Assembly: GCF_034471385.1 (NCBI RefSeq)
Contig: NZ_JARGYU010000002.1
Location: forward strand, 163,793-187,792
Reading direction: 5' to 3'
Source: Lyticum sinuosum
GTDB lineage: Bacteria; Pseudomonadota; Alphaproteobacteria; Rickettsiales; Midichloriaceae
DNA: 24,000 nucleotides
Every line of letters begins with the position of its first letter. Position 1 is the first letter of the stretch. Position numbers and translations under genes: made by a program. Positions 266 through 18,630 of this stretch are shown here, one piece after another. The notes under the pieces were generated by a model. The model was not told the origin of the DNA. It made no database searches and worked only from the letters and a program-made list of their open reading frames with translations.

Positions 266-660
266 AATAAAAATATAAATAAGTAAAGTAAAGTAATTTA
301 TTCAAATATTTATTCAAATAAACAAATAAAAATAAACTTTAAAAATATAAATTAATAAATATAAACTTTAAAATCAAATTTAAAAAAATATTCTATTTAA
401 AAAGACTCCGTAGTACCATTTATATGTTCATCATATTTTTCAGAAAGCTCTTTATTTTTAATAAAAATATAAATAAGTAAAGTAATTTATTCAAATATTT
501 ATTCAAATAAACAAATAAATATAGACTTTAAAAATATAAATTAATAAATAAATATTAACTTTAAAAATAAACTTTAAAATCAAATTTAAAAAAATATTCT
601 ATTTAAAAAGATTCCGTAGTACCATTTATATGTTCATCATATTTTTCAGAAAGCTCTTTA
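266..660. repeat. imperfect tandem duplication (copy A 266..455, copy B 460..660) of the rpoA-folB spacer plus the last 18 codons and stop codon of rpoA
   Basis: Direct alignment of the two copies shows long identical runs, for example aataaaaatataaataagtaaag and tattcaaatatttattcaaataaacaaataaa. The block aaatcaaatttaaaaaaatattctatttaaaaaga[c/t]tccgtagtaccatttatatgttcatcatatttttcagaaagctcttta is also shared. The differences are one 5-nt indel, one indel of about 17 nt and a few substitutions. Confidence 0.9.
397..455 (-). pseudogene. displaced, non-translatable duplicate of the rpoA 3' end (would encode ..[18 protein letters not shown]-stop)
   Basis: 59 nt match 602..660, the true rpoA terminus, with one mismatch (c at 405 versus t at 610). 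There is no in-frame start codon, and it lies downstream of the real rpoA stop. Confidence 0.85.
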
Positions 661-1646
661 ATATTTTTAGGAGGCCATTGTGGTACATCCATACCAAAAC
701 GTAATCCCATTTTGTTTAATACATCTTTTATTTCATTTAAAGATTTTTTCCCGAAATTTGGAGTATGAAGCATTTTGACTTCACTTTTAGTAACTAAATC
801 TCCAATATATATTATATTTTCATTTTTGAGACAATTATGAGATCTAACTGATAATTCAAGATGAGAAACTTTAGTTAAAAGCTTTGGATCAAATGGAAGT
901 TCATTTTTTTCTTTATTATTTTTTTCTGTAACTTCACAATCACCGACAAACATTTTGAATTGTTCTTGTAGAATACGTGCAGCGTAAGATAAAGCAATAT
1001 CAGGTGTTATAGTTCCATTTGTTTGAACTGTTAAATCTAAACTATCATAATTTGATTCTTTACCCACTTTTGCAACATCTACACTGTATGTACATGTTTT
1101 TACTGGTGAAAAAATGGCATCCATTAAAATATATCTACCAGAAGCAGAAACAGGAGAATTTACTGAAATACTACCTGCTTGTTTATAACCACTGCCTTTT
1201 AATATAATAAGTGATAAATCTAACTCAGCATTTTTGTCAAGATGACATATAATATAATCTAAATCCGGTATTATGAGTATCTGATCATTATTATCTTTTC
1301 TAGGCATTTCATTTATCTCTTCTATTTGTAACATTCTTGCTGTGACAATTGCTGGACCTTTCATTTTTATCTTTGCCTTGATTCTATTTACACCACTTTT
1401 TAATCCCACAGGCATACTTTTAAGATTCAGTATTATATCTAAAAAGTCTTCTTTTATTCCATGAATTGAAGAATATTCATGTTCTGCGTCATTAATTCTT
1501 ACAGCAACAACAGCTGCACCAGGAATTGAAGAAAGTAGTACCCTCCTCAATGCATTCCCTAATGTTGTACCAAAACCTCTTTCTAGTGGTTCTGTTCTAA
1601 ATGTAACACTATTGGGATTTTTTATTTCTGTTATATAGTATGCCAT
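603..1646 (-). CDS. rpoA: DNA-directed RNA polymerase subunit alpha
   Basis: 347-aa ORF. The N-terminal domain ([28 protein letters not shown] and [28 protein letters not shown]) and the C-terminal domain ([23 protein letters not shown] and [18 protein letters not shown]) are classic RpoA signatures. Confidence 0.97.
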
Positions 1647-1858: not shown

Positions 1859-2938
1859 TTATATATTATTATAGTTAGCAAGCATAGCCATTTGATTTTC
1901 TGTTATTAATTTTTCTATAAATTGATCAATATCACCATCATTTATAACAGATTCTAAATTATAAGATGTTACATTTATACGATGATCAGTAACTCTATTT
2001 TGCGGATAATTATATGTTCTTATTCTTTCTGATCTATCTCCACTGCCTACCATAATTCTTCTTGCTTCAGATCTTTCATCTTCTACAGATTGTCTTTGCA
2101 TATCATATATTCTTGCACGTAATATTTTTAAAGCTTTGGCTTTATTCTTATGTTGTGATTTTTCATCTTGTTGGCATACTACAGTACCTGTAGGTATATG
2201 TGTTATACGTACTGCACTATCTGTTGTATTTACATGTTGTCCTCCAGCTCCAGAAGATCGATAAACATCTATTTTAATTTCACTTTCTTTTATTTCTACT
2301 TCAAAATCTTCAGCTTCAGGAAGAATTGCTACTGTTGCAGTAGAAGTATGAATTCTTCCATTTGATTCAGTATCAGGTACTCTTTGCACTCTATGCACCC
2401 CAGATTCAAATTTTAAATGAGCATAAACAGATTCTCCATTGATTGATACTGATGCTTCCTTGCATCCATCTAATCCTGTATTTTGATATTCTAATATTTC
2501 AAATTTCCATCTTTTTTTTTCTGAATATCTTTTATACATTCTAAATAAAACTGCGCAAAAAAGTGCAGCTTCCTCTCCACCAGTTCCACATCTTAATTCT
2601 AATATAACACCTTTATCATCTGCTTTATCTTTGGGTAACAAAAGATATCTTAGTTGTAAATCCAAATTTTTAACATCTTCCTTTAAAATTAAAAGCTCAG
2701 AGTTGAACATATCAACCATTTCTTTATCATCTTTTTGAGTATTCTCTAATATTTCATTTATTTCGCTTATTTCTTTATTTCTTTCAAGATATGCTTTTGC
2801 ATATGGAATAATATTTTCTATTTCTGATACATCTTTAGCATTCTGTTGATACTCATTTGATGAAGTAATTTCAAGCATTTTTTGATTTAATTCTTCATAC
2901 TTTTTTACAATTGCTTGAAGTTTTTCTATTAAGCTCAT
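1859..2938 (-). CDS. prfA: peptide chain release factor 1
   Basis: 359-aa ORF with the GGQ motif (RSSGAGGQHVNTTDSAVRITHIPTG). It has an RF1-type PxT tripeptide context (RVPDTESNGRIHTSTATVAILPE) and a conserved C-terminus (DRSERIRTYNYPQNRVTDHRI). Confidence 0.95.
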   Translation of the reverse strand: MSLIEKLQAIVKKYEELNQKMLEITSSNEYQQNAKDVSEIENIIPYAKAYLERNKEISEINEILENTQKDDKEMVDMFNSELLILKEDVKNLDLQLRYLLLPKDKADDKGVILELRCGTGGEEAALFCAVLFRMYKRYSEKKRWKFEILEYQNTGLDGCKEASVSINGESVYAHLKFESGVHRVQRVPDTESNGRIHTSTATVAILPEAEDFEVEIKESEIKIDVYRSSGAGGQHVNTTDSAVRITHIPTGTVVCQQDEKSQHKNKAKALKILRARIYDMQRQSVEDERSEARRIMVGSGDRSERIRTYNYPQNRVTDHRINVTSYNLESVINDGDIDQFIEKLITENQMAMLANYNNI

Positions 2939-3256
2939 TTTTGTATATTTTAAATTTATATAAATGATCCGCGAATCTAAAAATTATAACGATAAAGTAT
3001 GTTTTGTATTAACCTATAATTTGGTTATTCTATTTATATTTAAAACAAAAAATAATTATTCTTTCAATCATCAGTTGATTTTATAACTAAAAGTTGCTAT
3101 ATATCAACTACACTAATATTAAATAATCCAATTAATAAGTTAAATTCATAAAACATCTGCAATGTAATATATATTTAATATATATTTTACCTAATAAATA
3201 AGTATAAAGCTTTTCAAATTCTAAGATAAGATAACATTATCAAAATATTATAAAAT

Positions 3257-3421
3257 ATGTCAAACAATAATAAACAAGTATCGAATGTTTTTATGAATTT
3301 TTCGTATATTTCTACTATAAATAATGAAGTAGATGAAGAAATAGATCTGAATTATCAAAATTGTCTTATTGATCAAGGAAATAAAGTTCCTCAATTTTTT
3401 TATAAAAAACACAAAATTTGA
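3257..3421 (+). CDS. hypothetical small ORF (54 aa, TGA stop), possibly only a gene relic
   Basis: Manual translation gives MSNNNKQVSNVFMNFSYISTINNEVDEEIDLNYQNCLIDQGNKVPQFFYKKHKI. It is the only ORF of any length inside the 678-bp prfA/ORF-930 spacer. I see no recognisable family and no Shine-Dalgarno sequence. Confidence 0.15.
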   Translation: MSNNNKQVSNVFMNFSYISTINNEVDEEIDLNYQNCLIDQGNKVPQFFYKKHKI

Positions 3422-3616
3422 TAAAATATTTTAATATTAAGCTAAAATATACAAAAATCTGATATAAAAAAATATAATTTGTAAATATCAAATATATATT
3501 TTAAATATAAAATATTATACTAATAAATCATATTAATAGTCAAATAATTAAATTAATGTATTAATTTTTAAAAAAATATTAAAATATAAATAAATTATAT
3601 TTATTTTTAGTATTTT

Positions 3617-6409
3617 ATGAATAATAAGGAAATTCTAACAGAAGAAGATCAAAAAACAAAAAAACTAGAGGAAAAAAAACAACAAGAGGAAGAAAAACAA
3701 AAAATTGTAAAAGAAAAAAAACAAAAACAAGCTGAAGATAAGATTGCAAAAAAACAAGCTGAAGATAAAATTGCAAAAGAAAAAAAACAAGAAAAACAGA
3801 ATAGAAAGAATAAAAAAGAAAAAAAACAAGCAACAGCTAATGAGATAATTGAGGAATTTAATAAATTACAAATTCCTAAAAAACCAAAGGATCCTAAAAA
3901 ACCAGAAAAACTCAAGGATCCTAAAAAACCAGAAAAACTCAAGGATCCTAAAAAACCAGAAAAACTCAAGGATCCTAAAAAACCAAAAGCTATAACTAGT
4001 GTAAATCAAATAACAAAAGATGATATTAAAGAAATTAAAGATGAAAAATTTTTAGAAAAAATTGCTGATTTTATAGTAGAAGATAAACAAGATATAGAAA
4101 AAGCTTTACAAGGTTATAAAAAAAATAAGAAAACAGCTATAAGTATCATTAAAGGTGCAATGGTTCATGTTCTTAAAGCTCCAGGTATATTAATTCTTTC
4201 TGTTGCGCATTTTCTTGGTGGAATTGGATATTCTATTGCCGGAATGAAAGAGAAGTTCTTATCTCATAATTATGAGAAAGAAATAAAAAAAGTTAAAAAT
4301 AATATTGCTAATGTTATTTTAGATAATTCAAAGGATATTACTCCTAATCCTATAAAAAAATATCAATTAGAAGAATTGCAAGCAAGTTTAGAAAAACTTG
4401 AACAAAAATCAAAAAATTCTAAAGAAAAATCTAAAGAATTTAAGAAAATATCAGTCTCTCAGTTTACTGAATCTGCTAAAGTTCTGGTATTATTAATTCT
4501 TGATATGACGACTGTTATTTTAGGTATAGTAATCAATATCGCAAATATGGTAGGTTTTGACAAAATCAAGAATAAACTTAGTAAATTTAAAGATAAAATC
4601 AAGAGTGTTTTCAGTAAAAAAAAGGAGATACAAAAGAATACTCAAGAACATGAAGATCCACATAAAAAAGAAGAAGAAAGAAATGAGAAGATAGCAAACA
4701 TAGTAGATAGCAGTCTAACAATATCGAGCAAATTATTGGAAGTATTAGGAAAAATATCTATAGTCCCGGAGCCAAATTTATATGCAATTACTGCAGGTGT
4801 TACTGTAGGTATTGTAGCTGGATCAACCATGGCTGCAATTTATAATCATACACAAGAAAAGTTAGCAAAAAAGACGTTAAAATCTTATGATAAATTAAAT
4901 GAAGCTATTTCTGAATATACTTCTAAAACAAATCCACAAGTACAAAATCTACAATCTGAAGAAGATAAAAAAGCTCAAAAAGAAAAAATTCAACAAGAAA
5001 AACAAGATGTTATAAAAGAAAATGCTCCAAAAATACCAACTAAAATTATAAATACTTTTGAAATATATAAAGAAAATTTATCTAAAAGTAGTGAAATTTT
5101 AGAATTAATTGAAAAAAATAAAAAATTAATTGGTGATATCAGTGCACAACAAAAGAGTAATGCAGAATTAAAAATTAAAACAGAAGAACAAAAAAATCGA
5201 AATGATGATAAAGATAACAAAGAAAAATTAAATGATAACATAAATAAACAATTCAATAAGGAATCACAGGAGATAATTCAGAAAACAGTGAAAGGATTTG
5301 CTGAATTCAGTGAAAATTTAATGAAAATACAAGATTTACAAAAAGAATTAGACCATGAATTGAGTAAAGCTTATAAAATTCATGGAATTGAAAATCCTAT
5401 TGATCCTAGAATTTTTGATAAATCTATTAGTAGTTTAAAAGAATATCAATATAATGGATTTGATCCAAAAAAAGAATTTAATATTGAAGAAAATATTACT
5501 GATATTCAAACTAGTATAGAAAATGGTCAAAAAATATTTTTTAATGAAAAATTAAATGAAATTAAAAAATTAGATGAAGAATTTGTAAAAATAGAAAATG
5601 GTAAAGAATTTTCAGAAGAATCTTATCAAAATCATATTAATAATATAACAGAGAAAATAGAAAAAGATCTTAAAATAGAAGTAAAAACAGAGGCAGTAAA
5701 TATACTTTATGATGATCTTAATAAGATACTGAATAATCATGGATATCAATATAATAATTATAATCAAGGAATTGAAGCTCTAAGTCATAATCATAATGCA
5801 CATACTGTAAATAACACAGTAACACCTCCACAAACAACATCACATGGAACAACTCAACCACAAGGACATAATTCTAATACACAACAAAATACACATTCAC
5901 AACCCACTGTTAATTCTGCTAATCATAATACAGTCAAAGGTAATACAACTCATACTACGAACCCTGTTAAAACTAAGGGGTTTTTAGACTATATCAAGTC
6001 TGGATTAAATTCTATTACAGATTTTATATTGTCTTTCAAATTATTTCCAGATGTTGATGGACATAAAAATCATGAAAGACATAATAACAAAAATGGTCAT
6101 CCTACATCTTCATATTTAACAGATGTAAGTAAAAAGTTGAATTTAGTTCAGGAAATGAAAAATGATCTTAAGAAGGATGATCAACATAATAATGAACATC
6201 CTCAAAACAAATCTTTCCAGCGTAGTAATAGTTTTTCTGAAGGAGTAAAAAATAATAAAATTAAGGAAATAATAAATAAACATGATGAGAAAGGTGGTGT
6301 TACAAAATTAACGCAGTATTCTCAACAGCAAGATTTTTCAAAGAGTTTTGTTGAAAAAATAAAAGAACAAAAGATTAATGAGAGTAATCGGAGGAATTCT
6401 ATTTCTTAA
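3617..6409 (+). CDS. hypothetical 930-aa Lys/Glu/Asn-rich coiled-coil protein with three internal hydrophobic segments and a His/Asn/Thr/Gln-rich tail (orphan)
   Basis: An uninterrupted 930-codon ORF in DNA where stop codons are very frequent by chance. There is no N-terminal signal peptide. Hydrophobic segments lie at about aa 173-210 (nt 4133-4246), 287-314 (nt 4475-4558) and 381-409 (nt 4757-4843). It carries in-frame tandem repeats. I recognise no known family motif. Confidence 0.85.
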   Translation: MNNKEILTEEDQKTKKLEEKKQQEEEKQKIVKEKKQKQAEDKIAKKQAEDKIAKEKKQEKQNRKNKKEKKQATANEIIEEFNKLQIPKKPKDPKKPEKLKDPKKPEKLKDPKKPEKLKDPKKPKAITSVNQITKDDIKEIKDEKFLEKIADFIVEDKQDIEKALQGYKKNKKTAISIIKGAMVHVLKAPGILILSVAHFLGGIGYSIAGMKEKFLSHNYEKEIKKVKNNIANVILDNSKDITPNPIKKYQLEELQASLEKLEQKSKNSKEKSKEFKKISVSQFTESAKVLVLLILDMTTVILGIVINIANMVGFDKIKNKLSKFKDKIKSVFSKKKEIQKNTQEHEDPHKKEEERNEKIANIVDSSLTISSKLLEVLGKISIVPEPNLYAITAGVTVGIVAGSTMAAIYNHTQEKLAKKTLKSYDKLNEAISEYTSKTNPQVQNLQSEEDKKAQKEKIQQEKQDVIKENAPKIPTKIINTFEIYKENLSKSSEILELIEKNKKLIGDISAQQKSNAELKIKTEEQKNRNDDKDNKEKLNDNINKQFNKESQEIIQKTVKGFAEFSENLMKIQDLQKELDHELSKAYKIHGIENPIDPRIFDKSISSLKEYQYNGFDPKKEFNIEENITDIQTSIENGQKIFFNEKLNEIKKLDEEFVKIENGKEFSEESYQNHINNITEKIEKDLKIEVKTEAVNILYDDLNKILNNHGYQYNNYNQGIEALSHNHNAHTVNNTVTPPQTTSHGTTQPQGHNSNTQQNTHSQPTVNSANHNTVKGNTTHTTNPVKTKGFLDYIKSGLNSITDFILSFKLFPDVDGHKNHERHNNKNGHPTSSYLTDVSKKLNLVQEMKNDLKKDDQHNNEHPQNKSFQRSNSFSEGVKNNKIKEIINKHDEKGGVTKLTQYSQQQDFSKSFVEKIKEQKINESNRRNSIS
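3725..3778 (+). repeat. 27-bp in-frame tandem repeat x2 (KQAEDKIAK KQAEDKIAK)
   Basis: The unit aaacaagctgaagataa[g/a]attgcaaaa occurs twice back to back with one mismatch. Confidence 0.9.
3875..3987 (+). repeat. perfect 27-bp in-frame tandem repeat, three full copies plus flanking partial copies (PKKPEKLKD units)
   Basis: The unit ggatcctaaaaaaccagaaaaactcaa is identical at 3889-3915, 3916-3942 and 3943-3969. A partial copy runs from 3970 to about 3985, and a related cctaaaaaaccaaa precedes the array at 3875-3888. Confidence 0.95.
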
Positions 6410-6499
6410 TTCTATTCCCGGGGTATTAAAAGTAGAAAAATAAAAGATTAATCATTAATAAGAGTAATTCTCTGGGGAAGTAATAATATTTTTAATAAA

Positions 6500-6523
6500 A
6501 TTGCATATTTAAGAATATGCAAT
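6500..6523 (+). terminator. possible hairpin downstream of the 930-aa ORF
   Basis: Perfect 10-bp inverted repeat attgcatatt / aatatgcaat with a 4-nt loop (taag), about 90 nt after the stop at 6409. The trailing T-tract is poor (ataagtatttat), so terminator function is uncertain. Confidence 0.3.
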
Positions 6524-6720
6524 ATAAGTATTTATAAATTTAATTTACAAAAAAAAATTATATAAATTTTTGTAAAATCAAGATAATTCCTTGAATAATT
6601 TTAATATTAAATAAAATATGATTAAATTTTGAATATTTTGATAATTATAAAGTATTTACAAGATTATTTTAATGTAATAAAATTTTATTATATAAAAATA
6701 TTATAAAAATAGGATTTTCT

Positions 6721-8916
6721 ATGAAAAATAACAATGATACTCAATCTTTAACATCAAAATCACAATCTTTAAAAGAAGAAATTATAAAACTTCAAGAAAT
6801 AGCTAAAAATCATCAAGAAAAATTAACAACACCTTCAAAAGAAGAGTTACAAAAAAAGATAAAATCTTTAGAAAACGAAATACAAGAAGAACAAAAAAAC
6901 TTTCATAAGCAAAAAATAGAAGTAAAAAAATCTAAAGAAGAATTAGTAACAAAAAACAAAGAACTAGAAAATAAACGAAAAGTAGTGCAATTAAAAAGAA
7001 ATGAAGCTGCAAAAAAACCCAATGAAGAGGCAAAAAAACTCAATGAAGAAGCAAATAACATTGAATCAAATATATATAAAGCACAGAAAAAAAATTTTAA
7101 TAAATTATATGCCGAAGCTAAAGTATATTTGAAACAACGTTTTAACAAATCTCACATAAGAGATATTGAATTTGGTTCTGAAAATTTGACAGAACAGGAT
7201 TTAGAAAATCTAAAACTTGTTGTAGAACATAAATATGGAAAAATAGGAGAACGTCTAGAAAATAATGAGAAAATTCATCAAATATCAAAAAGTTTAACAA
7301 AAGGACTTTTCTCACATTCATTAGGTCCAGTAAAATATTTTGGTGTTTTTACTAATCTTTTAAAATTATCTAAAGGACTTACAGATAAAGAAAAACAGAA
7401 AGAAAAAGAAATAACGCAAGAAATTAATGAATTGAACAATAATGTAATAGAAATAAGAGATAAAATTTTTTCTGGTAAGTTTAATGAAAATGATCAAAAA
7501 GAATTATTAAGTAAATATCAAGAATATGTAGAGAAAAATCTAGAAATTGGACAAGAACCAAAAAAAATAAACGATCTTCAAAAGAGTAAAGATATAGTAG
7601 GAAATGTCAAACATTCTATCTCTACAATATTTACAAAATTTTCTTTAAAAAAAATAATTGCAAAAAAAACCATCGAAAATATTAATCCAATAGCAGGAGG
7701 AGTTTCTAATCTTATAGATGGAGCATACAATAATAAATCAGGAAAAATAGTTTCAGGTACACTTAAAGTAGTTGAATCTGTAGCTCCTGTAACAATACCA
7801 GCTTTAAAACTAACATCTACTACTTTTGCAGGAGTATTTTTAATAGTTAATCGTCTTAATAATTATAATGCTATTACTAATATGAAAGAACATAAATATT
7901 TAAAAGAGATGATGAATCAAATAATAGCTCAACAATCAAATATAAATATAGATAATCATTATGAAATACCTACTGAAGCAAAAAATGGATTACCTAAATT
8001 TTTATATGAAGATTATTCAAATGATGGAAACCATTTTTTTTCTGAAATTGATAAACTTAAAAATTTATCACAAAGTTTTGTTGATCAAAAAAGTAATTTT
8101 GATTTCTTAATAAAAGAACATACTGAAATAAAAATGGATAAAAACGCAGTTGAAAAGAAAATAGTAAAGTTCACAGACGAACAAAGAAAAGAAAAATTCC
8201 AGAATATGTTCAATAAATATTCTAAAATTACATCACAGGTAGATTTTATAATAAAATGTATTGAGGATACAGAAAGATCTCTTGTATTACAATCTTTTAA
8301 GCCTAAAGATCTTGAAACAATAAAAGATTTAGCAAAAAAAATATCTGATAATACAAATAAATTATTTAAGAATTATGCAAATAATCAAGATAACCCTAAG
8401 TTAAATCAAGATTTAAGTAAAAATATACAAGAATTCCAGGATTTATCAAAAAACCTGAAAGAAAAATTTTTAGAAAAATCAATAAAAATTGAAGGCATAG
8501 TTCACAAATTTGATATTGAGAAAATTGAAGCAATGGGCAACATTCAAAAAAAAGATTATGAAGAATATGATAATATTAAAAAAGAACTAAATGGAGAAGA
8601 TAAAGCAGATAAATTTCTTAGGGGGAGAAATCATAATGCAAACAGTAATACAAATATGGTAAAATACTCTGAACACACAGTTAAAACAATTGAAAGTGTA
8701 TTAAATCAGGATTTAGAACACAATAATAAGATTCATTTAGACTTTGATAAAGAAGCAATTAAATTAGCTATACAAAATACAGAAAACACAATATCATGGA
8801 AAAATACAAATGATAAAGTAACTGATATAAAGAAAATGACTGAATTACACAGTGAAGTGAATACTTTAAAGAGAATGTTACATCAAGATAATAACCATAG
8901 TGCAATTTCACACTAA
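6721..8916 (+). CDS. hypothetical 731-aa Lys/Glu/Asn-rich coiled-coil protein with internal hydrophobic/Gly-rich segments (orphan, probably a diverged paralogue of the 930-aa ORF)
   Basis: An uninterrupted 731-codon ORF preceded by agga 8-11 nt upstream of the ATG. Its domain order matches the upstream ORF: a charged repeat-bearing N-terminus, hydrophobic segments at about aa 191-216 (nt 7291-7368) and aa 321-378 (nt 7681-7854), then a long heptad-like C-terminal half and an Asn/His-rich patch (RGRNHNANSNTN). Confidence 0.85.
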   Translation: MKNNNDTQSLTSKSQSLKEEIIKLQEIAKNHQEKLTTPSKEELQKKIKSLENEIQEEQKNFHKQKIEVKKSKEELVTKNKELENKRKVVQLKRNEAAKKPNEEAKKLNEEANNIESNIYKAQKKNFNKLYAEAKVYLKQRFNKSHIRDIEFGSENLTEQDLENLKLVVEHKYGKIGERLENNEKIHQISKSLTKGLFSHSLGPVKYFGVFTNLLKLSKGLTDKEKQKEKEITQEINELNNNVIEIRDKIFSGKFNENDQKELLSKYQEYVEKNLEIGQEPKKINDLQKSKDIVGNVKHSISTIFTKFSLKKIIAKKTIENINPIAGGVSNLIDGAYNNKSGKIVSGTLKVVESVAPVTIPALKLTSTTFAGVFLIVNRLNNYNAITNMKEHKYLKEMMNQIIAQQSNINIDNHYEIPTEAKNGLPKFLYEDYSNDGNHFFSEIDKLKNLSQSFVDQKSNFDFLIKEHTEIKMDKNAVEKKIVKFTDEQRKEKFQNMFNKYSKITSQVDFIIKCIEDTERSLVLQSFKPKDLETIKDLAKKISDNTNKLFKNYANNQDNPKLNQDLSKNIQEFQDLSKNLKEKFLEKSIKIEGIVHKFDIEKIEAMGNIQKKDYEEYDNIKKELNGEDKADKFLRGRNHNANSNTNMVKYSEHTVKTIESVLNQDLEHNNKIHLDFDKEAIKLAIQNTENTISWKNTNDKVTDIKKMTELHSEVNTLKRMLHQDNNHSAISH

Positions 8917-8944
8917 AAATTATATTAATTATTATATTTTTTTT

Positions 8945-9108
8945 ATTTTTCTATTATTAAATAATTTTTTTACATAAAATATTCTACTTATTATTTGTTT
9001 AATATTAATATTTAATATATTTTTATTTATTTTTCTATTATTAAATAATTTTTTTACATAAAATATTCTACTTATTATTTGTTAATATTAATATTTAATA
9101 TATTTTTA
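8945..9108. repeat. tandem duplication (about 84 bp x2) filling the convergent spacer between the 731-aa ORF and pepA, ending exactly at the pepA stop codon
   Basis: The block atttttctattattaaataatttttttacataaaatattctacttattatttgtt(t)aatattaatatttaatatattttta occurs at 8945-9025 and 9029-9108. The only difference is a 1-nt indel. Confidence 0.9.
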
Positions 9109-10728
9109 ATTATTTTCAAAATACTCTTTTATAAGTCGATCAAGTAATATTACACCAAATCCTGTTGCACCTTTTTGTATAAATTTATCACCAGATTTAT
9201 TCCAAGAAACTCCTGCTATATCAATATGCGCCCATTTTCTATTACTTTGAATAAACCTCTTTAAAAATTGAGCAGCAGTTATGCTGCCTCCACCATATCC
9301 TTGTCCTACATTTTTTATATCTGCTATAGATGAATTAATCTGTTCATCATATCTTGTACCCATAGGTAATCTCCATATAAATTCACCAATTTTATCTCCT
9401 ATATCGGATATTTTTTTAGCTAAATCATCATCATTACTAAATAATCCAGCACAATTATTACCAAGAGCAACTTTAACGGCACCTGTTAATGTAGCTAAAT
9501 CTATTATTGTATTAGGTTGATATTTTTCTTGTACATACCACAAAACATCTGCAAGTACTAATCTTCCTTCTGCATCTGTATTATCAACTTCTATAGTTTG
9601 TCCTGACATTGATGTTATAACATCACCAGGTCGTTGTGCTTTACCTGAAGGCATATTCTCTACTAATCCTAAAACACCTATAGCATTAATTTTAGCTTTT
9701 CTTTTAGCTAAAGAATACATCAAACCAGTTACAACTCCTGCTCCACCCATATCATATTTCATTTCTGCTATATGGTCACTTCCTTTTAGATTTATACCTC
9801 CTGTATCAAAAGTTACTCCTTTTCCAACAAAAGAAATTAAATTATTTTGATAATTGTTATCTTTATTATTATCTTTATTATTATCTTTACCCCACCATTC
9901 TAAAATAACAAGATATGGGGGTTTATCACTACCTTGAGCAACTCCTAATAAAGCATTCATTCCTAAAGACTCCATTTCTTCTTTATCGATAATTTTTGCA
10001 ACAAGACCTACCTCTTTAGCTATTGCATTACAATAATTTGCGAAACTTTCAGGATATATAACATTTGCTGGCTCATTGATTAAATTTCTAGTTATATTCA
10101 TTCCATCAATCATTGCTTTTGTATCCTTAAATAATTCTTTTGTTTTTTCTAATATTTTATCAGAAACATATATATTAAGGTTTGAAAAATATATTTTATT
10201 ATCATCAGCTTTAGCTTTATAATATTTTGTAAAACTATAAGATTTTATTGCAACTCCTATAGCAATTTGATTGATAATATGCGGTATTTCTTCTTCTATA
10301 TCATCTATAATTAAATCAGCATTTTGATGACAAATATAATCAACTTTATCAAAGATACATGAGCCTACTAACTTCCATTTAGTTGATTGATCACCATCTT
10401 TTCCAATTAAAATAATGATTTTGTCTTTGCATATTCCACTTAATATTACACCTTTTCCAGAATTAGGTTTAAAATCATATCGTAAATTCAATGCATCTTT
10501 TATTGATTCAATATAGGTTGTTGATTCTAAATAATCTGAAAATTCATAATTTTTGACATCAGAATTAGTATAATTACTATCTTTATTTTGATAAAAATCT
10601 TTTGTATTTACAATATCATTTTGTATATCAGATTTATCTAAAGTTGATAAATTACTTCCAATCAAATGAATTGATGCTTTATTTTGACTATTTTTTAATA
10701 AATTTAAAGGAAAAATATTTATTTGCAT
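9106..10728 (-). CDS. pepA: leucyl (M17 family) aminopeptidase
   Basis: 540-aa ORF with the M17 signature NTDAEGRLVLAD. It also has VGKGVTFDTGGINLK and the MKYDMGGAG metal/active-site blocks. Confidence 0.95.
   Translation of the reverse strand: MQINIFPLNLLKNSQNKASIHLIGSNLSTLDKSDIQNDIVNTKDFYQNKDSNYTNSDVKNYEFSDYLESTTYIESIKDALNLRYDFKPNSGKGVILSGICKDKIIILIGKDGDQSTKWKLVGSCIFDKVDYICHQNADLIIDDIEEEIPHIINQIAIGVAIKSYSFTKYYKAKADDNKIYFSNLNIYVSDKILEKTKELFKDTKAMIDGMNITRNLINEPANVIYPESFANYCNAIAKEVGLVAKIIDKEEMESLGMNALLGVAQGSDKPPYLVILEWWGKDNNKDNNKDNNYQNNLISFVGKGVTFDTGGINLKGSDHIAEMKYDMGGAGVVTGLMYSLAKRKAKINAIGVLGLVENMPSGKAQRPGDVITSMSGQTIEVDNTDAEGRLVLADVLWYVQEKYQPNTIIDLATLTGAVKVALGNNCAGLFSNDDDLAKKISDIGDKIGEFIWRLPMGTRYDEQINSSIADIKNVGQGYGGGSITAAQFLKRFIQSNRKWAHIDIAGVSWNKSGDKFIQKGATGFGVILLDRLIKEYFENN
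9853..9888 (-). repeat. 12-nt in-frame tandem repeat x3 encoding (KDNN)3 inside pepA
   Basis: The plus strand reads attgttatcttt attattatcttt attattatcttt. The protein reads WWGKDNNKDNNKDNNYQNN, between conserved M17 blocks. Confidence 0.9.
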
Positions 10729-10899
10729 GAGATTAAATAATAAAAAATATTTGAAACTTGTTTAAAAATATTGTGCTTATAAATAATATAAACAGTTGAA
10801 TATACTTAAATATACTTATTTTAAATTTTACGGAAGTATATAAAAAAAATAAAAAAATAAAAAAATTTAAATAGTAGAAGAATTTGAACTAAAGATACA

Positions 10900-10969
10900 T
10901 AAAAATACGTTAAAAAATATATTCAAAAGTATATCAAAAAGTATATTAAAAAGTATATTTAATGTATAT
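10900..10969 (+). repeat. about six degenerate tandem 12-mers (yAAAAAGTATAT) in the pepA/rpmF divergent spacer
   Basis: Exact AAGTATAT occurs at 10927-10934, 10939-10946 and 10951-10958, with a degenerate ATGTATAT at 10962-10969. Weaker units lie upstream from about 10900. Confidence 0.7.
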
Positions 10970-11160
10970 TAATTTATGAAGTAAAATGATCTATTATATA
11001 TTTTAAAAAATTTTAATTTTAAGAAATTTTATACTAAAAAAAAATATCTAAATAGCTAAGTGAAATTTTTATAAAAAAATCATATTATTATCATATTATT
11101 ATTTATTAAAACTAGCAGTAGTAATTTATATTAATTAATAAGAACTAAATTTAGATAATA

Positions 11161-11188
11161 TTGACATATGAAGATTCATATATATAAT
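11161..11188 (+). promoter_or_regulatory. candidate sigma-70 type promoter upstream of rpmF
   Basis: TTGACA (11161-11166), a 16-nt spacer, then TATAAT (11183-11188), about 135 nt upstream of the rpmF ATG. TATAAT is common by chance in such AT-rich DNA, whereas TTGACA is not. Confidence 0.35.
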
Positions 11189-11323
11189 AATGAAGTGATT
11201 TATTCATTAAAAAGTTATTAGATATTTCTTTGATAAAAAATTATAATTTAATATAATTTTGTGTTTTTTTATCTTAGACAACTAAATTGATTGATAATAG
11301 ATAATTATTAATAATATAATAAT

Positions 11324-11539
11324 ATGGCAGTACCAAAAAAGAAAACTAGTAAAAGTAAAGGAGCAAAAAGAAGAAATCAAAATAATGCAACAAAATTAAG
11401 ATTACAAAGTAATAATATTATATTGAATAAAAGAGGGGAACCAGTTTTAAGACATCATATATCTGCTAAGGGTTTTTTTAAAAATAAAAGAGTTCTTCCT
11501 TTACCAAAAGAGGAAAATATTGATGATGCAACATTATAA
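11324..11539 (+). CDS. rpmF: 50S ribosomal protein L32
   Basis: The MAVPKKKTSKSKGAKRRNQ N-terminus and GEPVLRHHISAKGFFKNKRV match the cysteine-less L32 type (compare E. coli [20 protein letters not shown]). The gene lies upstream of plsX-fabH, as in many bacteria. Confidence 0.9.
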   Translation: MAVPKKKTSKSKGAKRRNQNNATKLRLQSNNIILNKRGEPVLRHHISAKGFFKNKRVLPLPKEENIDDATL

Positions 11540-11574
11540 ATTAAATATAATATAAATATAACAATAAATATTTT

Positions 11575-11592
11575 ATAGATTTTTTAATCTAT
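11575..11592 (+). terminator. weak hairpin plus T-rich tail after rpmF
   Basis: The arms atagatt and aatctat (7 bp, mostly A/T) flank a tttt loop and are followed by tttatattttt, 36 nt after the rpmF stop. Confidence 0.2.
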
Positions 11593-11950
11593 TTTATATT
11601 TTTATCTAAAATTAGTATTTTATAATCTTATACTTTCATATTTTTGCATAATTTTTTTGCTTAGTAATTTTAATATATAAAAAAAATAAATTATTTATAT
11701 TGGTTCTTAATACCTTAAGAAATAAAGTAAGAAATAAAGTTATAATATAAAAAAATACTTGAATATTGTATAAATATATAAATTAAAAATCACTTTAATT
11801 TTAAAATATTTAAATAAATTTGCAAAAATTATAAAAACTTCATAAAAATAGTTTTTTTACATAAATTTATATAAATTATTTAACTTTATTAAACAATTAT
11901 ATTTTCTCTAAATTATATAGAGTATTTGATATTATTTTTTATAAAATTTA

Positions 11951-13159
11951 ATGAATAATAAAATAGTTGTAAGTATCGACTTAATGGGTGGTGATTATTC
12001 TCCACTAGCCCCAGTTAAAGCTCTTGAATTGATACAAGAAACCTTACATTATTCTAATTGCTCATTTATTTTACATGGAAATAGTGATGCAAAAAAACTT
12101 TTGGAATCTAGCAATATTTCAAAAGATCTCTATATATTTAATCTAACTAACACTGAAGTATCAGCAGATGATAATCCATTAGATATTATGAGAGGGAAAA
12201 AAAATAATAGTAGTATGCAACTTTCCATTGAAGATGTTTCCCAAAAAAGAGCACATGTTGCTGTCTCATCAGGAAACACAGGCGCATTAATGGCATTATC
12301 AATAAGAATATTAGGCTGTATTAATGGTATAAAACGTCCTGCAATAGTTGGTACAATTCCTACAAAAAGAGGTAAATGTGTAATGCTAGATTTAGGAGGG
12401 AATTTAGAATGCGATGAAAAAATGTTACTTCAATTTGCTCTGATGGGTTCATGCTTTGCAAAGATCATATTAAGTCAGGAAAATACAAAAAATATAAACG
12501 ATAATTTATTAAATTCACATAAAATATTAAATAAAAATAACTTTCATGATAAAAATGAAGAACATCTTATTTATAATATAAAACAAAATAATGATATATC
12601 TGATTATAATCCAACTGTTGCTTTGTTAAATGTTGGAGTAGAATCAAATAAAGGTAGAAACACAGAGAAAAAAGCTTTTGATCTACTACAAAAATCAAAT
12701 CTTAATTTTATTGGATGTATTGAAGGACATCATATAATAGAAGGAAATGCGGATGTTATAGTAACAGATGGATATACAGGAAATGTTGTGCTTAAATCTG
12801 CAGAAGGTGTATCTAATTATATTAGAGATATACTAAAATTATCAGTAGAGAAAAATTTGATTAGTAAAATAGGAGGATTTTTTCTAAGTTCTAGTATAAA
12901 ACAAAACATGGAAAAAATAAGACCAGATAAAAACAATGGTGCAATGTTTGTTGGATTAAATGGAATAATTGTTAAGAGTCATGGTGGTTCCAAATCAGAA
13001 GGAATTGCTAATGCAATAAAAACAGCTATAATGCTTGCAGAAAATCATGTAAATGAAAGAATAATTAATGAAATAAATTGTATTGATTTTATCGATAAAA
13101 TTAAAAATAGTTCAGTAAAATTATTGAATATGCTACGTTTTAATGACACACCCAATTGA
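11951..13159 (+). CDS. plsX: phosphate acyltransferase PlsX
   Basis: The blocks SIDLMGGDYSP, AVSSGNTGALMA, ALLNVGVESNKG, VTDGYTGNVVLKSAEG and IVKSHGGS are PlsX blocks. The gene ends in TGA and overlaps the fabH start by 17 nt. Confidence 0.93.
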   Translation: MNNKIVVSIDLMGGDYSPLAPVKALELIQETLHYSNCSFILHGNSDAKKLLESSNISKDLYIFNLTNTEVSADDNPLDIMRGKKNNSSMQLSIEDVSQKRAHVAVSSGNTGALMALSIRILGCINGIKRPAIVGTIPTKRGKCVMLDLGGNLECDEKMLLQFALMGSCFAKIILSQENTKNINDNLLNSHKILNKNNFHDKNEEHLIYNIKQNNDISDYNPTVALLNVGVESNKGRNTEKKAFDLLQKSNLNFIGCIEGHHIIEGNADVIVTDGYTGNVVLKSAEGVSNYIRDILKLSVEKNLISKIGGFFLSSSIKQNMEKIRPDKNNGAMFVGLNGIIVKSHGGSKSEGIANAIKTAIMLAENHVNERIINEINCIDFIDKIKNSSVKLLNMLRFNDTPN

Positions 13160-14324
13160 ACATCAAAGAATTTATATATCTGGAGTAGGAGCTTCTCATC
13201 CTAAAAAATGCGTTCTAAATGAAGATTTACCTCTTCATCTTAATACTAGTGATGAATGGATTCAACAAAGAACAGGAATTAAACAACGTTATATTATAGA
13301 CGAAGGAGAGGATATTGTTTCAATAGCTTCTGAAGCTCTATTAAAAGCGCTTAAAATGGCTGGTATTAATCCATTAGATCTTGATGCGATAATATTAGCA
13401 ACAACAACTCCTGCTATGCGAATGCCATCAACTGCATCTTTAATACAAAATATTATAGGAAATTATAGATGTACAGCATTTGATATACAAGTTGCATGTG
13501 CTGGTTTTGTTACAGCTATACAAATAGCCTATGGGTTTATATTTAGTGGACAATTCAGTAAAATTGCTGTGATAGGTGCCGATTTAATGTCAAAAATCAT
13601 AGATTGGAATGATAGGAGTACATGTGTTCTTTTTGGTGATGGTGCAGGAGCAATTATTATAGAAAATAAAATGGAGGCTGAACTCGTTTATAATGCACAA
13701 AATTTAATGAATAATATAGATATAGATAATTTTAGTAAAAATTCATTTTATGAAAAAAATTTAACAGTTGATTATACAAATTATAATATAAATTCTTTAA
13801 ATAATAAGATAATTTCTTTCAATTCAGAAAAAGTTCAAGATTTAAACGAAAAAAAATATTTATTTGATAGTAGTGGTAATATTCCACAATCTGGAAATAT
13901 AATAGATCTTGTAAGTTATTCTCATGCAGATTTAAAAGATATACTATATGCCAATTGTGATGGTTTTATTACTATGAAAGGTATTAATGTATTTAAACAT
14001 GCTGTTCAAGAATTGACATTTATATCAAGATTATTAGTAAAAAGAAATAACTTAGATATATCTGATATATCCTGGGTAATTCCACATCAAGCAAATAAAA
14101 GAATTTTAGATGCTATAGCTTCTAATTTAGATATATCTATAGACAAATTTGTTATTACAGTTAATAAGTATGCGAATACATCTGCTGCTTCTATACCAAT
14201 GGCATTAGATTTTTTATATCATAATGGAGATAGTTTTTATAAAAGATTATCTAGTGGAGATTTAATAATAATGCTTGGTGTAGGATCTGGTATGATTTTC
14301 AATGGAATATTATTAAGGTGGTAA
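13143..14324 (+). CDS. fabH: 3-oxoacyl-ACP synthase III (FabH) with a large low-complexity insertion
   Basis: TSDEWIQQRTGIKQR is present. The catalytic Cys context is AFDIQVACAGFV, the His context is PHQANKRIL, and the Asn context is YANTSAASIP. At 393 aa it is about 70 aa longer than typical FabH. Confidence 0.93.
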   Translation: MTHPIEHQRIYISGVGASHPKKCVLNEDLPLHLNTSDEWIQQRTGIKQRYIIDEGEDIVSIASEALLKALKMAGINPLDLDAIILATTTPAMRMPSTASLIQNIIGNYRCTAFDIQVACAGFVTAIQIAYGFIFSGQFSKIAVIGADLMSKIIDWNDRSTCVLFGDGAGAIIIENKMEAELVYNAQNLMNNIDIDNFSKNSFYEKNLTVDYTNYNINSLNNKIISFNSEKVQDLNEKKYLFDSSGNIPQSGNIIDLVSYSHADLKDILYANCDGFITMKGINVFKHAVQELTFISRLLVKRNNLDISDISWVIPHQANKRILDAIASNLDISIDKFVITVNKYANTSAASIPMALDFLYHNGDSFYKRLSSGDLIIMLGVGSGMIFNGILLRW

Positions 14325-14327
14325 AAT

Positions 14328-14767
14328 AAAACAGTATAATGAAAAAAAATATTTTTATTTATTTTAATATTTTATAATTATTTTAATATTTTATAATTAC
14401 TAATTGATATTAATTAAATTTATTTTTTTTAATAGAATTACTTATTTTGTAATAAAAAATACATAAAATATATGAAATTAAACCAGATATTACTGTATAA
14501 GATGGTATATAAAATCCTCTAATTCCAATTAATTGAGATAATATACTAAAAACAGTATAATGAAAAAAAATATTTTTATTTATTTTAATATTTTATAATT
14601 ATTTTAATATTTTATAATTACTAATTGATATTAATTAAATTTATTTTTTTTAATAGAATTACTTATTTTATAATAAAAAATACATAAAATATATGAAATT
14701 AAACCAGATATTACTGTATAAGATGGTATATAAAACCCTCTAATTCCAATTAATTGAGATAATATAC
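14328..14767. repeat. near-perfect tandem duplication (about 221-bp period: 14328-14546 and 14549-14767) of the fabH/symporter spacer plus the last 45 codons and stop codon of the symporter gene
   Basis: Base-by-base alignment at an offset of 221 shows only two mismatches (g14449/a14670 and t14515/c14736). Copy A starts 4 nt after the fabH stop. Confidence 0.95.
14410..14546 (-). pseudogene. displaced duplicate of the symporter 3' end (last 45 codons plus stop)
   Basis: Equivalent to 14631-14767 of the intact gene with 2 substitutions. It has no upstream coding continuation or start codon. Confidence 0.85.
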
Positions 14768-17892: not shown

Positions 17893-18630
17893 TTGTCTAT
17901 TATGCTCACATTATCAAATATTCGCTATATTTCTCTAAAAAATGCTCCTAGAATGTTAAGTATGACAATAGGACCCAGAGCATGTTTATTAATAGCAGGA
18001 AATAATTCTGAATATAGAACAAGAATATTATTAGAAATAGCCAGGCTTAATAATTATAAAAAAGAAAAAATAAATCAACGTTTAATTGATTTGATTCCTA
18101 AGAAAAAATTACCTACAGAAATATTTTATAATAAAGTTAATGTCGATCTTTTTATTGATGAATGGAGAGATCAAGTAGGTTACCTACCAGAACATCCCAA
18201 TGGGATATGCTTTCAAAGAATGACACTTTTAGATAATTTAATATTATGGGCTAAATTATATAATGTTGAACCTGCCTTAGATCTTATTATTAACATGTGT
18301 GGTTTAGATCGCTATATAGATTATATTTATCGTGATTTAACTGTTTTAATAAGAAGAATTTCATGTATTGCTATTGGATTAATAATGCCTAATCCTACAA
18401 TATGGCTTATGGATAATCCTTTGGGTGATGTTTTTTTAGATAATATAAGAGGAACATTAAGTATAGCTCAAATTATATGTTACAAATGTAATCAAAATGG
18501 AATAGTAATACTTACTTCAACTTTAACTCAATTAAATAAATTGACTAAATTTCTAAATGATAATTCAGTTGATCCTATAATTGCTAATATGGATAATGAA
18601 TCTCCTGATATAGAATTTTATGAATTGTAA
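17893..18630 (+). CDS. ccmA: CcmA-like ABC ATPase subunit of the heme exporter, with degenerate catalytic motifs
   Basis: ABC-ATPase fold order is recognisable and the gene lies directly upstream of a CcmB-like membrane protein. The Walker A position reads GNNSEYRT, the signature position reads LTVLI, the Walker B position reads WLMDN, and the H-loop position reads LTSTL. The start is either TTG at 17893 or ATG at 17902. Confidence 0.65.
   Translation: MSIMLTLSNIRYISLKNAPRMLSMTIGPRACLLIAGNNSEYRTRILLEIARLNNYKKEKINQRLIDLIPKKKLPTEIFYNKVNVDLFIDEWRDQVGYLPEHPNGICFQRMTLLDNLILWAKLYNVEPALDLIINMCGLDRYIDYIYRDLTVLIRRISCIAIGLIMPNPTIWLMDNPLGDVFLDNIRGTLSIAQIICYKCNQNGIVILTSTLTQLNKLTKFLNDNSVDPIIANMDNESPDIEFYEL

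Follow-up and report, generated by a model that had tools for sequence, protein, structure and literature searches.

Inc proteins, restricted to the phylum Chlamydiae, are defined by a bilobed domain 40-60 aa long, in which the helices measure 15-32 aa and the loop is free of charge; they are lineage-specific, show little or no sequence conservation, lack a Sec signal and in many cases are rich in helix beyond their membrane part (PMC3048545). Transmembrane effectors of type IV secretion, such as the LegC/Ylf proteins of Legionella and those predicted in Rickettsia, are helical as well; they lack a signal peptide, possess a single hydrophobic segment or a small number of them, and are delivered into host membranes (PMC12981334, PMC11602083). 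Coiled-coil scaffolds such as TipN, EzrA, TolA and the crescentin-type proteins are long, helical, in some cases membrane-anchored and poorly conserved, and serve shape and polarity. Here we set against these systems two large open reading frames (ORFs), ORF1 and ORF2, in a 24-kb stretch of DNA (the window; GC content ~23%) which the protein database assigns to Lyticum sinuosum (Rickettsiales, Midichloriaceae), an endosymbiont of Paramecium. Unlike the Rickettsiaceae, Lyticum lives within a symbiosomal membrane that derives from the host (PMC3837311). The original prediction took the two ORFs for a diverged paralogous pair of membrane-associated coiled-coil proteins, perhaps akin to Inc effectors. 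In our analysis they are a real pair of large orphan genes, of which ORF1 is a credible membrane protein, and an Inc-like effector reading of the pair is plausible by analogy.

The two ORFs follow one another on the same strand between prfA and pepA, with the coordinates and orientation first proposed for them, and the long, very AT-rich spacer described before each is indeed there:

3617..6409, plus strand: ORF1, 930 aa, an orphan predicted to be all-alpha; NCBI name "hypothetical protein [Lyticum sinuosum]"
6721..8916, plus strand: ORF2, 731 aa, an orphan predicted to be all-alpha; NCBI name "coiled-coil domain-containing protein [Lyticum sinuosum]"
2939..3616, no strand: spacer between prfA and ORF1, 678 bp, 14.9% GC
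6410..6720, no strand: spacer between ORF1 and ORF2, 311 bp, 14.1% GC
1859-2938, minus strand: prfA, flanking the ORF1 side and divergent from ORF1
9106-10728, minus strand: pepA, flanking the ORF2 side and convergent with ORF2

ORF1 and ORF2 are real genes, because three lines of evidence agree. At a stop probability of 0.092 per codon, the chance of an open frame of this length is 1e-39 for ORF1 and 2e-31 for ORF2, so that the argument from length made at the outset holds. The GC content by codon position in both ORFs runs GC1>GC2>GC3, with GC3 at ~0.12, as in the housekeeping genes of the window. Finally, the locus is recovered at 99.9% identity, with an identical ORF2 translation, in an independent Logan assembly (run SRR19346781), whose contig begins within the 27-bp repeat array of ORF1, at window position 3956. 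The ORF1 promoter presumably lies in the 678-bp spacer, and the ORF1 ATG has no Shine-Dalgarno-like sequence upstream; the ORF2 ATG has AGGA 9 nt upstream, and the 311-bp spacer before it holds a promoter-like site, TTTACA-17-TAAAAT, at 6655-6683, of a kind that overall is no more frequent than in shuffles. No terminator-like site follows either ORF, and neither Rfam families nor tRNAs were found in the window.

As far as sequence comparison reaches, both are lineage-specific proteins without a recognisable family, much as the original prediction had it. A word-indexed search of 5.8 billion protein clusters returned ORF1 to itself and ORF2 to itself only, and so did a search of the same clusters at E<=1 with ORF2 aa 130-731, from which the low-complexity N-terminus had been removed. 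For ORF1 only (aa 125-930), 1.84 billion representatives were also scanned exhaustively with HMMER, and the self-match alone came back. Metagenome contig scans and tblastn against plasmids and phages returned nothing for either protein; Pfam and NCBIfam held no match at E<=0.01, and nothing meaningful appeared in Pfam at E<=10, NCBIfam, PHROGs or PADLOC. A tblastn match of ORF2 to locus L043 (E = 0.031) falls on the adenylation domain of a NAD-dependent DNA ligase and was judged to be chance, because the alignment gap lies across the region of the ligase catalytic site (CEPKIDGVS). The literature searched holds no paper on orphan proteins of the Lyticum genome. A genome scan anchored on prfA yielded 72 related loci, Lyticum not among them, with a best identity of 59% (metagenome-assembled genomes of Midichloriaceae, and Midichloria). 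None of the 72 has a relative of ORF1 or ORF2 beside prfA, and in all of them rpoA and pepA are absent up to 10 kb from it. Hence the gene order is specific to Lyticum, where it has been rearranged locally, and the prfA-pepA interval cannot be compared across genomes: the comparison once proposed for it turned up no relative of either ORF, and the interval itself is kept in none of the 72 loci.

Orphan status must be read against the divergence of this genome, for which the window provides its own measure:

17902-18630: ccmA, very diverged; best NCBIfam model 42.9 bits against a cutoff of 200, Pfam ABC_tran 12.7 bits
18724-19440: polytopic hydrophobic protein of 238 aa adjoining ccmA, with no family match at all; presumably ccmB
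13143-14324: fabH, 393 aa, with an Asn/Ile/Lys/Asp-rich low-complexity insertion of ~75 aa after ~aa 176
11951-13159: plsX, 402 aa, with an insertion of the same composition, ~50 aa long, after ~aa 176

The profile lengths for the last two are ~320-340 aa; AT-driven insertions within proteins seem to arise readily in this genome. With ccmA barely recognisable and fabH and plsX so expanded, lack of homologues is weaker evidence of novelty here than it usually is. Most housekeeping proteins of the window are still detected, with E below 1e-17.

The anatomy of ORF1 is that of a predicted helical protein with three hydrophobic segments, H1 to H3, followed by a long charged region and a tail:

3641..3859, plus strand: charged N-terminal helix, aa 9-81, including the KQAEDKIAK repeat (3723-3778)
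3879..3985, plus strand: PKKPEKLKD array
4133..4246, plus strand: H1, aa 173-210, TAISIIKGAMVHVL-KAPG-ILILSVAHFLGGIGYSIAGM, a candidate helical hairpin
4475..4558, plus strand: H2, aa 287-314, AKVLVLLILDMTTVILGIVINIANMVGF, the strongest membrane-like segment
4778..4843, plus strand: H3, aa 388-409, LYAITAGVTVGIVAGSTMAAIY
4844..5734, plus strand: charged region, aa 410-706, predicted helical by AlphaFold2 (AF2)
5210-5404, plus strand: patch, aa 532-596, resembling ORF2 aa 535-598 at 38% identity
5735..6406, plus strand: tail, aa 707-930 (224 aa), rich in Asn/Thr/His/Ser/Gln, mostly without predicted structure and without an ORF2 counterpart

Both proteins are almost wholly alpha-helical in the AF2 models, at low confidence, and, as had been noted, neither begins with a hydrophobic signal sequence; the last 30 residues carry a net charge of +2 in ORF1 and 0 in ORF2. 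In ORF1, aa 9-81 consist to 74% of E/K/R/D/Q and to 11% of hydrophobic residues, are without heptad signal, and are modelled as a single long helix, with a predicted local distance difference test score (pLDDT) of ~64-75 over aa 11-70. Because of this charged composition and the few hydrophobic residues, the stretch is likely to be a charged single helix of the ER/K type, and not a coiled coil. The PKKPEKLKD copies that follow (aa 86-126) have a net charge of +11 and are given no helix by AF2. Both of the peptide repeats first read in ORF1 exist at the DNA level, KQAEDKIAK as a 27-bp repeat of 2.1 copies at 3723-3778 and PKKPEKLKD as a 27-bp repeat of 4 copies at 3879-3985 with 97% matches. 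The several hundred heptad-like residues ascribed to both proteins fared less uniformly. In a crude register test on windows against shuffles, ORF1 passes at aa 314-344 only, within the shuffle range (0.4% of windows, equal to the shuffle maximum), and ORF2 passes in five stretches.

The hydrophobic segments of ORF1 did hold up. Hydrophobicity was assessed in Kyte-Doolittle 19-residue windows (KD-19), by Hessa sums and against 1000 shuffles. H1 peaks at 1.73 (aa 185-203; Hessa sum +5.3), with two hydrophobic lobes around the turn KAPG and with small-xxx-small motifs in the fine-scale profile; H2 peaks at 2.48 (aa 290-308; Hessa sum +0.5), a value reached by 2 of the 1000 shuffles, and is aligned as a helix-turn-helix in a weak PDB match; H3 peaks at 1.73 (aa 390-408; Hessa sum +2.3) and contains a glycine-zipper-like small-xxx-small run, A390, G394, G398, G402 and A406. 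For comparison, pepA and prfA do not exceed 1.25. By Hessa sum, H2 and H3 fall within the range spanned by the transmembrane segments of the window's symporter, and H1 slightly above that range. The loops between the segments, 76 and 73 aa, are lysine-rich. We consider it credible from these profiles that the segments are strong enough for membrane embedding, and favour insertion as hairpins or re-entrant segments.

ORF2 is a different matter:

6742..7104, plus strand: N-terminal region, aa 8-128, with heptad windows at aa 8-37, 41-70 and 101-128
7681..7854, plus strand: Gly/Ala/Val-rich region, aa 321-378, weakly hydrophobic and collinear in the alignment with the surroundings of ORF1 H3
8323..8514, plus strand: patch, aa 535-598, shared with ORF1 aa 532-596 and the best conserved between the two

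Its most hydrophobic window, aa 358-376, has a KD-19 peak of 1.50, which 176 of 1000 shuffles reach; ORF2 thus has no convincing membrane segment, and on this profile we do not accept it as a membrane protein. The hydrophobic segments once seen in it have to be given up, and of the claim that both proteins are membrane-associated, the half that concerns ORF1, with its peaks beyond shuffles, is what stands. In the heptad test, 2.7% of ORF2 windows pass as against 0.2 +/- 0.4% in shuffles, the further passing stretches being aa 222-251 and 487-522, and these segments agree with the NCBI name of the protein. The N-terminal helices reach a pLDDT of up to 78, and the short repeats reported there are found in the DNA as a 21-bp tandem repeat of 3 copies at 6993-7059.

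Whether the two are paralogues depends on the method asked. Composition-adjusted BLASTP gives E = 1.4 and bias-corrected phmmer finds nothing between them. An uncorrected Smith-Waterman alignment is collinear over ORF1 aa 2-724 and ORF2 aa 5-731, with a score of 225 against 144 in reversed controls and 167-175 +/- 21 in local-composition shuffles (Gumbel P 0.014-0.027); once the N-termini are removed, the score comes to 173, with shuffles at 107 +/- 16 (P ~0.003). The best hhalign patch joins ORF1 aa 532-596 to ORF2 aa 535-598 over 63 columns (pairwise E 0.048), and the motif KG-x3-H-x-L, which had been pointed out in both proteins, is found at aa 179 of ORF1 and aa 194 of ORF2. The cross-correlation of hydropathy peaks at r = 0.31 at an offset of +11, a magnitude that is not significant since the reversed control gives r = 0.30. 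An ancient tandem duplication is plausible on these alignments, with chances about evenly balanced: the proposed similarity rises above shuffles by Smith-Waterman and is lost with BLASTP and phmmer.

How does the pair compare with the systems named at the start? With the Inc proteins, ORF1 shares lineage-specificity, the absence of sequence conservation and of a Sec signal, and helix richness outside the membrane; H1, with a Pro/Gly turn between two hydrophobic lobes, recalls their hairpin-like hydrophobic domain, and Lyticum, like the bacteria that make them, sits in a host-derived vacuole (PMC3837311). The definition is nevertheless missed narrowly: H1 has 38 aa instead of 40-60, lobes of 14 and 20 aa instead of helices of 15-32 aa, and a Lys in its turn, KAPG, so that a strict Inc-type bilobed domain does not survive measurement. 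Inc proteins mostly have a single bilobed hairpin, in contrast to three separated hydrophobic segments from aa 173 onwards in ORF1; they belong to Chlamydiae, whereas Lyticum is one of the Rickettsiales, with no virulence type III system known; and ORF2 has no significant hydrophobic domain. The only gene in the window related to type III secretion is the flagellar flgK. With domain size and turn off the definition, the wrong phylum, and a score of 17.6 bits for the NCBIfam model of the chlamydial Inc protein CT529 where the cutoff is 360, ORF1 was rejected as a member of the Inc family. As to the type IV transmembrane effectors, Rickettsiales typically carry a type IV system (PMC10847448). 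ORF1 has one mark of that class, hydrophobic segments without a Sec signal, and ORF2 does not; neither has sequence similarity to these effectors, whose loops are mostly <30 aa where those of ORF1 are ~75 aa. Of the coiled-coil scaffolds, the heptad-pattern windows of ORF2 are reminiscent, but there is no profile match to them and ORF1 is almost without heptad signal. TolA, TipN and EzrA are anchored at the N-terminus, in contrast to ORF1, where the first of three hydrophobic segments comes at aa 173. A TolA/TonB-type protein was also considered for ORF1 and dismissed, there being no N-terminal anchor and no Pfam or NCBIfam match even at E<=10, with only a charged, Pro/Lys-rich spacer in common.

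In the reading we put forward, ORF1 and ORF2 are proteins peculiar to Lyticum and predicted to be alpha-helical nearly throughout, and would be very old tandem duplicates whose functions have since diverged. ORF1 would be a membrane-embedded helical scaffold, anchored by H1-H3 as helical hairpins or short spans that are set apart by the lysine-rich helices of ~75 aa. From the membrane would project the N-terminal arm of ~125 aa (the charged single helix and the Pro/Lys repeats), the helical region of ~300 aa and the disordered Asn/His/Thr-rich tail of 224 aa. ORF2 would have lost the membrane segments and may act as a soluble or peripheral coiled-coil relative or partner. Both might work at the interface of the symbiont and the host-derived symbiosome membrane; since a membrane of host origin surrounds Lyticum, a protein inserted in the vacuole membrane is biologically possible. 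ORF1, having no signal peptide, would be exported by a route other than Sec, for which type IV secretion is a candidate, possibly by way of an inner-membrane intermediate. Transmembrane domains occur in about a third of type IV effectors, and passage through such an intermediate is open to the hydrophobic members (PMC12981334, PMC11602083). The evidence establishes that the genes are real, orphan and, by prediction, rich in helix, and that ORF1 has hydrophobic segments. Taken whole, with the topology, partnership, export and target membrane that we infer in it, this account is tentative, possible but somewhat unlikely.

Several points weigh against it. No homologues of ORF1 or ORF2 exist in any collection searched, so that their conservation and selection are not measurable, and their orphan status may in part reflect the extreme divergence of the genome. 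The hydrophobicity of H2 is that of ordinary inner-membrane helices and fits a resident bacterial membrane protein equally well. The ~75-aa loops are at odds with multipass type IV effectors, most of which have loops of <30 aa. Every extramembrane part of ORF1 is lysine-rich, and the positive-inside rule consequently yields no topology. The single-sequence AF2 models are poor (pLDDT 40.7 for ORF1, 42.2 for ORF2), and Foldseek of the ORF1 model against PDB returned generic long-helix proteins only (best E = 1.0). Finally, part of ORF1 resembles the Streptococcus protein Asp1, a similarity which, if real, would place H2 and H3 in the core of a soluble alpha/beta domain.

4376..4852, plus strand: Asp1-like stretch of ORF1, aa 254-412 against PDB 5vae_A residues 305-466, overlapping H2 and H3

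This similarity is best considered together with the notion that ORF1 and ORF2 belong to a known family, hyper-diverged, inflated by insertions and masked by AT bias, with aa 254-412 of ORF1 as its Asp1-like or GT-B-like remnant. At ~25% identity, phmmer against PDB gives E values of 7.8e-5 with full-length ORF1 and 2.2e-5 with a 286-aa query, where reversed and window-shuffled ORF1 controls give best values of 0.24, 0.41 and >1; ORF1 paired with Asp1 reaches 25.9 bits, and the best of 1500 local shuffles 14.0. The Pfam Asp1 profile (PF16993) matches the same columns with E = 0.0015. The diverged ccmA with its unmatched membrane neighbour and the insertions in fabH and plsX speak for such a process too. 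The matched part of 5vae_A we take to be the C-terminal Rossmann-like half of a GT-B-like fold. On the other side, the profile reaches 18.3 bits where the threshold is 26, is matched at positions 320-462 of 522 only (~27% of its length) and is accompanied by matches of similar weakness to unrelated membrane families, and ORF1 matches no general glycosyltransferase family. The aligned segments of ORF1, H2 above all, are far more hydrophobic than the Asp1 stretch, the remainder of Asp1 has no counterpart in ORF1, AF2 gives no strands in ORF1 (at low confidence), and ORF2 scores -6.7 bits, that is, no match. Moreover, Asp1 is a cytosolic protein of the Firmicutes, unlike ORF1 of the Rickettsiales, and of its accessory Sec system neither secA2, secY2, asp2 and asp3 nor serine-rich adhesin genes are in the window. 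The low profile score, the partial coverage, the missing neighbours and the unmatched ORF2 led us to reject ORF1 as a member of the Asp1 family. The similarity is statistically robust and biologically unexplained; the chance that H2 and H3 are parts of a degenerate alpha/beta domain instead of membrane helices is, in our view, rather small, and since most housekeeping proteins here can still be found, a known family in heavy disguise is quite unlikely as well.

The alternative that the two are resident proteins of the bacterial cell is a serious one, although still unlikely: ORF1 would be a helical scaffold anchored in the inner membrane and ORF2 a cytoplasmic coiled-coil protein, serving shape, size, division or flagellar placement, with TipN, EzrA and the crescentin-type proteins as a working analogy. 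An N-in protein of the inner membrane could well look like ORF1, with no signal peptide and a long charged N-terminus before H1; H2 and H3 equal the transmembrane segments of the symporter in hydrophobicity, and ORF2 has heptad segments beyond shuffles in the crude test. Sequence change is rapid in coiled-coil scaffolds, and the closest relative sequenced so far stands at the 59% prfA identity given above. L. sinuosum is also unusually large, up to 1.1 x 7.8 um, curved and heavily flagellated, with L. flagellatum being straight (PMC3837311). Neither protein matches a known cytoskeletal or division family, however; the near-identical tandem repeats and the long His/Asn tail seem more typical of surface or secreted proteins, and lysine-rich loops on both sides of H2 are awkward for a simple multi-span topology in the inner membrane. 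A two-component membrane-damaging toxin, in which the glycine-zipper helices of ORF1 would insert and ORF2 would be the helical partner, as in the binary alpha-helical pore-forming toxins that serve as the working analogy, might lie behind the historical killer trait of Lyticum, in which sensitive paramecia are rapidly lysed. To our knowledge, no toxin behind this trait has been identified so far. An adjacent helical pair, with hydrophobic hairpin-like segments and the small-xxx-small run of H3 in ORF1, would suit the idea, and according to the early literature paramecia with Lyticum kill sensitive strains in 10-40 minutes (PMC3837311, PMC13134042); the effect was not reproduced with the strains tested, an L. 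sinuosum host strain included (PMC3837311). With no similarity to toxin families in Pfam or PDB, no sequence feature specific to pore formation, both proteins far above the size of known binary alpha-pore-forming toxins, and ORF1 largely of low complexity, we regard it as very improbable indeed. Very unlikely, too, is that these are dispensable ORFs, young or degenerating, kept open by chance or weak selection and without specific function. The lack of any homologue, and hence of evidence of conservation, the low-complexity, repeat-expanded sequence, the missing Shine-Dalgarno-like sequence before ORF1 and the readiness of this genome to gain AT-rich insertions and duplications would all fit decay. 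With 9.2% stops per codon, though, only selection can keep frames of 930 and 731 codons open, and the gene-like codon-position GC and the alternation of hydrophobic and charged helices in ORF1 are not what random AT-rich sequence would give; a reduced genome would also hardly retain 5 kb of junk.

The remainder of the window holds secB, a Tim44-like gene, a thiamin pyrophosphokinase gene and hisS, together with the following:

603-1646, minus strand: rpoA
11324-11539, plus strand: rpmF, 71 aa
14631-16100, minus strand: sodium/solute symporter
21958-23922, minus strand: flgK, encoding a 654-aa protein with the FlgK hook-associated helical domain (E = 5e-11)

The flgK gene is in keeping with the heavy flagellation of the non-motile Lyticum (PMC3837311). 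On the minus strand, prfA lies directly upstream of rpoA (603-2938). The spacer between prfA and ORF1 contains an ORF of 54 aa at 3257-3421 on the plus strand (MSNNNKQVSNVF...), in surroundings that look more AT-rich; it has no family match and may represent either a small gene or what is left of a gene. On the far side of the pair, the convergent spacer between ORF2 and pepA (5.3% GC) is filled at 8929-9116 by an 84-bp tandem repeat of 2.3 copies with 96% matches. In the Logan assembly this spacer is 84 bp shorter (105 against 189 bp), which reflects either a variable copy number or a copy collapsed by short-read assembly. Likewise, a 221-bp tandem duplication of 2.0 copies, 99% identical, spans 14328-14767, from the fabH-symporter spacer into the 3' end of the symporter gene, and the spacer is 221 bp shorter in the Logan contig. 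Between pepA and plsX (10729-11950), ~1.2 kb hold rpmF as the sole gene, with 10-13% GC outside it; for a reduced genome, the non-coding stretches on its two sides, 595 and 411 bp, are of unusual length.

For the present, what we report amounts chiefly to an entry in a catalogue: a pair of large orphan genes, found in a very divergent genome where the lack of relatives argues only weakly for novelty. Obligate intracellular bacteria commonly encode large helical proteins confined to their own lineage. In the literature searched there is no paper on how the Rickettsiales symbionts of Paramecium build or maintain their vacuole, nor on the basis of the Lyticum killer phenotype. ORF1 and ORF2 are candidates for proteomics or localisation. 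It is distinctly unlikely, yet worth bearing in mind, that they are the first identified proteins of a ciliate-dwelling Rickettsiales symbiont to be inserted in or attached to the symbiosome membrane, Inc-like by independent origin and with an architecture of three hydrophobic hairpins, or, less likely, the long-sought membrane-lytic factor of the killer trait. Should the symbiosome membrane indeed be their site of action, the two would open the interface between Rickettsiales and Paramecium to molecular study, and would represent convergent evolution with the chlamydial Inc proteins.

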